Assembly (NCBI RefSeq): GCF_988243305.1
Contig: NZ_OZ547136.1
DNA: 64,000 bases
Strand: one strand, 5' to 3'
A program made the position numbers and the translations under genes. This document shows, piece after piece, positions 43,443 to 43,806 of this stretch. How positions within the stretch are numbered: the first letter of the stretch is position 1; each line of letters begins with the position of its first letter. The notes under the pieces were generated by a model, which did no database searches, was not told the DNA's origin, and was given only the letters and a program-made list of their open reading frames with translations.

Positions 43443-43461
43443 AGAATAAGACTTATTCTTA
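43443..43461. promoter_or_regulatory. palindromic site upstream of the lipoprotein gene
   Basis: AGAATAAG-A-CTTATTCT, 13 bp upstream of the ATG. Confidence 0.35.
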
Positions 43462-43473
43462 TCTGTGCGGGGA

Positions 43474-43806
43474 ATGAAAATGAAAAGAAATCTTCCGTTA
43501 ATTATTTTGTTGTCTTCTCTGGTTATGGGCTGTACGCAACATAAAACAGATATGCCCCGACAGTTGGTTAAGGCATTACCACAATATCCGGCCTATGCAG
43601 CGGCAAATTATATAAAGGGACGGGTTGATGTGAGGTTTGATATTGGTGCTGATGGTACTGTCACCCGAATTGAGTTTATTCGTTCAGAGCCGCACCATCT
43701 GTTTGATGAGCAGGTTGTAAAGGCGATGGCAAAATGGCGATTTGAGAAGGACAGGCCGTGTAAAGGCGTGAAGAAAACGTTTATCTTTAGTCCTTCTGCA
43801 CCCTGA
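43474..43806 (+). CDS. lipoprotein with TonB C-terminal-like domain (moron)
   Basis: signal peptide MKMKRNLPLIILLSSLVMGC; domain YPAYAAANYIKGRVDVRFDIGADGTVTRIEFIRSEPHHLFDEQVVKAMAKWRFE parallels host TonB residues [54 protein letters not shown] encoded at 16540..17259. Confidence 0.65.
   Translation: MKMKRNLPLIILLSSLVMGCTQHKTDMPRQLVKALPQYPAYAAANYIKGRVDVRFDIGADGTVTRIEFIRSEPHHLFDEQVVKAMAKWRFEKDRPCKGVKKTFIFSPSAP

Follow-up and report, generated by a model that had tools for sequence, protein, structure and literature searches.

TonB-dependent receptors are the main gateways into the cell for many coliphages, colicins, microcins and siderophore-antibiotic conjugates. The phage lipoproteins Llp and Cor act on one of these receptors, FhuA, with Llp acting from the periplasmic side. 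As cited in PMC9841981, an overexpressed periplasmic TonB domain inhibits TonB-dependent iron import (Howard 2001), and a pentapeptide of the TonB box reduces both colicin killing and phi80 infection (Tuckman & Osburne 1992). Here we describe a small prophage gene, found in a stretch of 64,000 nucleotides of Escherichia coli DNA (the window), whose product joins a lipoprotein signal peptide to the C-terminal domain of TonB and may act as a decoy for TonB boxes. We refer to the product as the TonB_C lipoprotein.

In the window, which is E. coli chromosome, a lambdoid prophage has integrated into ompW, and the locus is 100% identical in strain CFSAN061761. The late region of the prophage runs in the order holin, YdfR-family gene, lysozyme, Rz/Rz1, a 340-bp gap and the TonB_C lipoprotein gene, followed by a minus-strand YlcI/YnfO-family gene, an HNH endonuclease gene and the genes for the small and then the large terminase subunit (Table 1). 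The original prediction, made from the letters of this DNA, had correctly placed the gene between Rz and the HNH/terminase genes, and the minus-strand gene intervenes. Inside that minus-strand gene lies an imperfect 16-nt inverted repeat (75% complementary, 3-nt loop, 43962-43996). The reading frame of the TonB_C lipoprotein opens with GTG at 43465 and holds internal ATG codons at 43474, which would give 110 aa, and at 43480, which would give 108 aa. The open reading frame is real, but the length of 110 aa first assigned to it begins two codons early. The protein is probably 108 aa long with its start at ATG 43480, since this codon follows a GGGGA Shine-Dalgarno sequence, is the start called by PGAP in an identical genome, and matches the starts of all homologues, which begin with MKRN or MKRR. 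Phage 21 has AGGA at the place equivalent to the GGGGA.

Table 1. Coordinates of the features discussed in the text; positions are those of the window unless a locus handle (L) is given.
Feature	Position	Strand	Basis or remark
Host tonB, 239 aa (comparator)	16540..17259	+	~3 kb from prophage end at ompW
Rz i-spanin	42674..43141	+	PHROG 13, E=7e-76; PGAP 'lysis protein'
Rz1 o-spanin, embedded in Rz	42894..43079	+	PHROG 3198, E=2e-31
Conserved non-coding leader between Rz and the TonB_C lipoprotein gene	43150..43442	+	~80% identical between two E. coli allele groups
Promoter-like site ATGACC-16 nt-TAGAAT with TG extended -10 (predicted only)	43420..43447	+	consensus scan
Palindrome AGAATAAG-A-CTTATTCT (43443-43459) plus TATC; candidate degenerate Fur operator	43443..43463		13/19 match to Fur consensus at 43445-43463
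Shine-Dalgarno GGGGA	43469..43473	+	read from sequence; 6 nt before ATG 43480
TonB_C lipoprotein CDS, 108 aa	43480..43806, stop included	+	ORF list; PGAP 'TonB family protein' WP_000828072.1 at identical locus; dN/dS 0.11 vs phage-21 allele
Lipoprotein signal peptide MKRNLPLIILLSSLVMG and Cys18, predicted to be lipidated (codon 43531-43533)	43480..43533	+	read from sequence
TonB C-terminal domain, residues 26-104 of 108 aa, aligned to TonB 153-231	43555..43791	+	PF03544, TIGR01352, BLASTP, AF2/Foldseek
YlcI/YnfO-family small gene	43938-44138	minus	between TonB_C lipoprotein gene and HNH/terminase genes
Canonical Fur boxes of relatives (TGATAATTATTATCA, TGAGAATTATTATCA, GAGAATGATTTTCATTATA and similar)	L006 320-355; L097, L098, L105 ~3965-4000; L101 ~1605-1625; L008 ~5960-5985		phage, chromosomal and plasmid contexts

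Several other features of the prophage were recorded. At about 36880-38600 of the window (from L001 13582-15023), between the antiterminator/methyltransferase genes and a nanS-like esterase gene, the prophage carries genes for tRNA-Ile and tRNA-Arg, a DUF3927 gene and the anti-adapter gene iraM. We take this stretch to be roughly where Stx phages carry stx, and no stx gene is present in it. The C-terminus of the prophage J protein is identical to that of VT1-Sakai J and 56% identical to that of lambda J, and the annotation shows no cor gene following J. A link between the TonB_C lipoprotein and self-exclusion was considered and rejected, as neither the J C-terminus nor the region after J suggests that the phage encoded by this prophage uses FhuA or TonB. 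Comparison with PADLOC for defence-system membership returned a noise match only (E=0.04). Because the prophage sits in ompW, host tonB lies ~3 kb from its integrase end (window about 20100-21300), and the host gene and its prophage look-alike are ~26 kb apart. This nearness looks like a coincidence of the att site; a recent capture of tonB is disfavored since the two proteins are only 38% identical.

The resemblance to the C-terminus of host TonB was originally noticed by eye, with a profile search and a structural superposition proposed as checks. Both have now been run, and the resemblance is significant. The protein matches Pfam TonB_C (PF03544) at E=1.1e-14, with TonB_C and TonB_2 its only Pfam matches, and scores 55.1 bits against TIGR01352, where the cut-off is 27.1. 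BLASTP aligns it without gaps to residues 153-230 of host TonB (38% identity over 78 aa, E=4e-21), and its sequence matches in the PDB are exclusively TonB C-terminal domains. An AlphaFold (AF2) model built on a 23-sequence alignment has a pLDDT above 95 over residues 30-110. Its best Foldseek neighbors are 1u07, 2gsk_B and 2grx_C at rmsd 1.0-1.4 Å, the last two being TonB from the BtuB and FhuA complexes, respectively; superposition on 2gsk_B gave an rmsd of 1.0 Å and a TM score of 0.92. All of the top 11 neighbors are C-terminal domains of TonB or FusB, with crystal structures at rmsd 1.0-1.7 Å, and the predicted model matches the solved TonB C-terminal fold of two helices on a three-stranded sheet. 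By sequence and predicted fold, the TonB_C lipoprotein is a member of the TonB_C domain family.

Residues of the protein map onto TonB by subtracting 125 from the TonB number. On this scale, the TonB residues Y163, P164, G174, F180, G186, P198, F202, W213, P220 and F230 are all retained; Phe stands in for Y215, Leu for Q160 and Tyr for R166. Q160 and R166 of TonB are implicated in contacts with the TonB box. Strand β3, the strand that pairs with the TonB box in TonB, is preserved, and only a Pro-rich tail of 5 residues comes after it. When the mature protein was modeled by AF2 as a fusion to BtuB residues 1-20 through a 24-residue (GGS)8 linker, using a 13-sequence family alignment, the peptide remained undocked, formed no strand and had a pLDDT of 43-53; this is a single model with no TonB positive control. 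As the original prediction held, the membrane anchor and Pro-rich spacer of TonB are both absent: a cleavable lipoprotein signal stands in place of the N-terminal transmembrane anchor, with the TonB alignment starting at residue 153, and ~7 residues between Cys18 and the domain replace the spacer that spans the periplasm. The best score against the NCBIfam equivalog for the TonB transducer is 73.6 bits, where the cut-off is 315. Because anchor, spacer and equivalog-level similarity are all missing, we classify the protein as something other than a TonB energy transducer.

The signal peptide reads MKRN-LPLIILLSSLV-MG-C18-T, with a basic n-region, a hydrophobic core, the lipobox L-V-M-G-C18 and Thr at position +2. 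The VMGC lipobox that had been proposed is thus present, and it is conserved in relatives. Outer-membrane lipoproteins were recognized by a basic n-region, a hydrophobic core, a lipobox of the form [LVI][ASTVIM][GAS]C and no Asp at +2; the TonB_C lipoprotein has all of these features and its relatives share the architecture. Conservation of the lipobox Cys within the family is 90% or higher. Both Cys and lipobox are kept in relatives of 34-97% identity, in which +2 is never Asp. Under the Lol sorting rule, Thr at +2 predicts the outer membrane, and it is because of this residue that we predict an outer-membrane location for the protein. The tether from Cys18 to the TonB C-terminal domain is only ~7 residues long.

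The perfect palindrome described upstream of the gene in the original prediction is present at 43443-43459, with 14 nt separating it from ATG 43474 and 20 nt from ATG 43480. A perfect 8-bp palindrome of AT-rich sequence does not, by itself, clearly exceed what chance would give. The region is near-invariant in 69 close alleles, and the right arm is missing from the phage-21 allele through a 13-nt indel. A role for the palindrome as a terminator or RNA hairpin was rejected (fold of -9.3 kcal/mol, z=-0.9 against shuffled sequence). The -10 element of the predicted promoter overlaps the left arm; the extended -10 is TGTTAGAAT in the window and TGTCAGAAT in phage 21, where TGTYAGAAT is preserved.

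Most relatives of the gene carry Fur boxes about 28-36 nt before the start codon, and some of these are perfect TGATAATnATTATCA sites. The perfect 7-1-7 Fur site TGATAATTATTATCA is found both in a phage contig (L006/L007) and in Enterobacter, and TGAGAATTATTATCA is the Fur box upstream of the Raoultella gene. Matches to the 19-bp Fur consensus reach 16/19 in Erwinia, 15/19 at the ahpC-linked gene and 14/19 in Shimwellia. When every 100-nt window of these loci is taken as background, the Fur boxes of relatives have a combined P of ~1e-7 to 5e-9, a conservative value, since windows that contain the sites themselves are counted as well. We read this pattern as regulation of the TonB_C lipoprotein family by Fur, which would place it under iron-starvation control. 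The allele in the window matches the consensus at 13/19 (43445-43463, local p ~0.02), and 18 sites in the 64 kb score at least 13/19; the promoter region of host tonB in the window reaches a maximum of 12/19. As relatives carry Fur boxes at the same position, we read the palindrome as a degenerate Fur operator, probably one that has diverged and overlaps the promoter, rather than as a site for a phage regulator. The predicted operator is possibly still functional in the window allele. The phage-21 allele has no Fur site, and our reading is that it has lost the operator.

The top match to the Fur consensus in the window, GGTAATGAGAATAATTAAC (15/19, 6387-6405), lies elsewhere, upstream of a 567-aa ORF (6560-8263) that is the first of five co-directional ORFs with an oppABCDF-like arrangement judged by ORF layout only. 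This site may be a chance AT-rich promoter match, and it advises caution with Fur calls based on consensus only. Transcription of the TonB_C lipoprotein gene should also occur late in lytic growth, since the gene runs in the same direction as the late operon with no terminator-like site ahead of it; none was found in 42900-44300. The non-coding leader between Rz and the gene is more similar between the two allele groups (~80%) than the coding sequence itself (~73% nucleotide identity), and it holds a strongly conserved block, GGTGCGATGGTGGAAGAAACAGGA. A search of Rfam with the leader (43150-43442) gave nothing at E<=1, and no ORF in it is conserved; the phage 21 record lists a 45-aa hypothetical protein in this region.

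The window allele, defined by 95-100% nucleotide identity and at least 80% query coverage, was found in 413 of 5,426 complete E. coli genomes and also in Stx1a-converting phages, JLK-2012 and Lys8385Vzw. A second allele with 71% protein identity is present in phage 21, ev017, Perceval, Nissle 1917 and APEC O1. Counting any match to either allele gives an upper bound of ~1,600 genomes, or up to ~30% of complete E. coli genomes. The dN/dS ratio between the window and phage-21 alleles is 0.11, which indicates purifying selection. The viral scan returned near-identical alleles only, and the diversity of the family came from species-representative genomes, among which full-length members were found in Enterobacterales only. 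Distant relatives of 34-51% identity all have the lipobox. In a Klebsiella phage and in a prophage with a lambda-type GpA terminase, relatives again follow the lysis genes, and an HK97-like phage contig has the order DUF2514 spanin, TonB_C lipoprotein gene, 100-aa ORF, HNH and terminase; the post-lysis slot is therefore kept in phages with HK97-type and with lambda-type terminases.

Outside phages, plain chromosomal relatives lie next to ahpCF and in Raoultella, Enterobacter and Erwinia, and a plasmid relative adjoins a Qat defense system. This 129-aa family member is on a plasmid-like contig with ParM/StbA partition genes (L014 5348-11737), immediately upstream of the Qat anti-phage genes (KAP NTPase, QatB, TatD-like). 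As judged from these comparisons, the TonB_C lipoprotein gene is a real, selected accessory gene common to phages and hosts. Its function may extend beyond superinfection exclusion, since chromosomal and plasmid relatives exist in Enterobacterales. Some phage-21-type copies from E. coli and metagenomes (P0012, P0013, P0018, P0019 and P0021) have a frameshift near codon 90, beyond which they share a different C-terminus (…SEETIYLYAVTSLMLPGREG…). The shared ending points to a frameshift, either recurrent or inherited, that removes strand β3 in some prophages, which may be cryptic.

We propose, with a probability of roughly 0.45, that the TonB_C lipoprotein is an outer-membrane-tethered decoy for TonB boxes that is induced by iron starvation. 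The ~7-residue tether would hold the TonB C-terminal domain at the periplasmic face of the outer membrane, where the TonB boxes of FhuA, FepA, CirA, BtuB and other receptors, and those of imported bacteriocins, would be exposed. The domain would capture these boxes by β-strand addition, as TonB does. Having no link to ExbB/ExbD in the inner membrane, it would transmit no energy and would therefore be a competitive decoy. The predicted outcome is a lower rate of TonB-dependent irreversible adsorption by phages of the T1/phi80 type and reduced uptake of colicins and microcins. The gene would be transcribed with the late operon and probably also from its own promoter in the lysogen. As a Fur box overlaps the promoter of relatives, the protein would be made under iron scarcity, when the transporters are most abundant and the cell is most vulnerable.

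The decoy model builds on the identity of the domain and its fold, the retention of strand β3, the lipobox, the short tether, the location of the gene, purifying selection and the Fur boxes at family level. From these we infer binding to TonB boxes, an inhibitory outcome and Fur control of the window allele. Some observations count against the model. A decoy induced by iron starvation would impair iron uptake by the host, which looks costly. The chromosomal relatives in Raoultella, Enterobacter and Erwinia suggest a housekeeping and perhaps non-inhibitory role. The replacement of Q160 and R166, the undocked BtuB peptide in the uncontrolled fusion model, a Fur match in the window of only 13/19 and a phage-21 allele without the site also speak against it. 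A broader proposal, that Fur-controlled outer-membrane lipoproteins consisting of TonB_C only form a new class of broad-spectrum immunity proteins acting as TonB-box decoys in prophages, plasmids and chromosomes, is doubtful at this stage.

The Fur boxes and chromosomal relatives would also accommodate a protein that helps rather than blocks transport. As an envelope factor of iron starvation, it would assist or tune TonB-dependent uptake, and its benefit to the phage would lie in a fitter lysogen. The Fur boxes of relatives imply induction together with the TonB system, several relatives (Raoultella, Enterobacter, Erwinia) sit in ordinary chromosomal neighborhoods, and TonB-like C-terminal domains can bind partners other than TonB boxes, as the C-terminal domain of FusB does with ferredoxin (PDB 9hi3). 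We nonetheless consider this reading unlikely, as a TonB C-terminal domain uncoupled from ExbBD has no known way of promoting transport, and the only experimental precedent that we found for uncoupled TonB domains, as relayed in PMC9841981, is inhibition. Little weight is given to a structural role, in which the lipoprotein would bind peptidoglycan or another envelope component and stabilize the envelope of the lysogen independently of TonB boxes. Peptidoglycan binding has been reported for the TonB C-terminus, and the gene occupies a moron slot in which lambda and phage 21 carry the lipoprotein Bor. A tether of ~7 residues, however, would by our estimate be too short to reach the peptidoglycan layer, and Fur control is left unexplained by such a role.

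The position of the gene directly after the lysis cassette, which is invariable and co-directional with late transcription, together with a match to PHROG 1267 'Rz-like spanin' (E=1e-42), would point to a spanin-like or lysis-accessory lipoprotein. We regard this as highly improbable, given that the prophage has its own complete Rz/Rz1 spanin pair just upstream and that relatives exist outside phages. An o-spanin was defined as a short Pro-rich lipoprotein within or next to the i-spanin gene, and a u-spanin by a lipobox and a C-terminal transmembrane helix. The TonB_C lipoprotein resembles neither: it has a globular TonB_C domain, its gene is not embedded in an i-spanin gene, and it is no unimolecular spanin because it lacks a C-terminal membrane helix. 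The PHROG 1267 label probably reflects position and lipobox, and it is likely to be an annotation error that is carried on into phage annotations. Older annotations such as 'partial tonB-like' and 'TonB fragment', and the frameshifted or truncated copies (P0012, P0013, P0018, P0019), could instead be taken to mean that the gene is a decaying, functionless fragment of a captured tonB. This is scarcely credible. Unlike TonB, the protein has gained a lipoprotein signal peptide, which is conserved; it shares just 38% identity with host TonB, and an intact reading frame is found in hundreds of genomes as well as in viable phages, phage 21 among them; the selection signal (dN/dS 0.11) excludes pseudogene status.

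Public databases annotate the protein as 'TonB family protein', as 'TonB C-terminal domain protein' in phage 21, or as 'partial tonB-like membrane protein'. The original prediction regarded the protein as not known to be characterized. This stands for its function, as a full-text literature search found no description or functional study of such a protein and the text of the phage 21 genome announcement does not contain 'TonB', but the homology to TonB was already public in annotation. As far as we can tell, what is new is the recognition of a coherent lipoprotein family across phages, plasmids and chromosomes, the Fur box at the level of the family, and the specific decoy model. If the decoy model is true, jamming the handshake between TonB and receptor from the outer-membrane side would provide a new form of superinfection exclusion, independent of the receptor, together with bacteriocin tolerance. 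Under iron starvation, with the receptors at their most exposed, one such protein would weaken the attack of all phages, colicins and microcins that depend on TonB. The gene is common: Stx1a phages, phage 21, Nissle 1917 and APEC O1 all have it. The decoy could be one reason why strains differ in how susceptible they are to phage therapy and 'Trojan horse' antibiotics, and it would be a ready tool and a template from which to design TonB inhibitors. Should the protein turn out to aid iron uptake, this would be new biology for the TonB system.

Among known systems, the TonB C-terminal domain itself (~150-239; 1u07, 2gsk, 2grx) is closest in sequence and structure, with 38% identity, a fold within 1.0-1.4 Å rmsd, and the YP motif, most aromatic core residues and strand β3 all kept in the lipoprotein. 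Unlike TonB, the lipoprotein has no anchor, spacer or ExbB/ExbD coupling and is predicted to be anchored in the opposite membrane; it has Leu for Q160 and Tyr for R166, and falls below all TonB equivalog cut-offs. The TonB fragments of Howard, Herrmann, Stratilo & Braun 2001 (J Bacteriol 183:5885), as cited in PMC9841981, are periplasmic and uncoupled and inhibit TonB-dependent iron import, which is the action proposed here. Those fragments, as described there, were artificial, soluble and overexpressed pieces of TonB itself, whereas the TonB_C lipoprotein is natural, diverged, predicted to be lipid-anchored and carried on mobile elements. Bor of lambda and phage 21 is likewise a lipoprotein moron between the spanin genes and cos, and in phage 21 it adjoins the TonB_C gene, but its gene runs on the other strand, its sequence is unrelated, and its annotation is that of a complement-resistance factor. 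Llp of phage T5 and Cor of phi80, N15 and E. coli prophages are, like the TonB_C lipoprotein, small phage-encoded proteins, and they inactivate FhuA. The sequence families appear unrelated, with TonB_C and TonB_2 the only Pfam matches of our protein and TonB C-terminal domains its structural neighbors, so that any resemblance to Llp or Cor appears to be functional only. Llp and Cor are the closest functional analogue. Llp is a lipoprotein that sits in the inner leaflet of the outer membrane and works from the periplasm. Its action is allosteric and confined to FhuA, whereas a decoy for TonB boxes would affect all TonB-dependent receptors and leave phages that do not need TonB, such as T5, unaffected.
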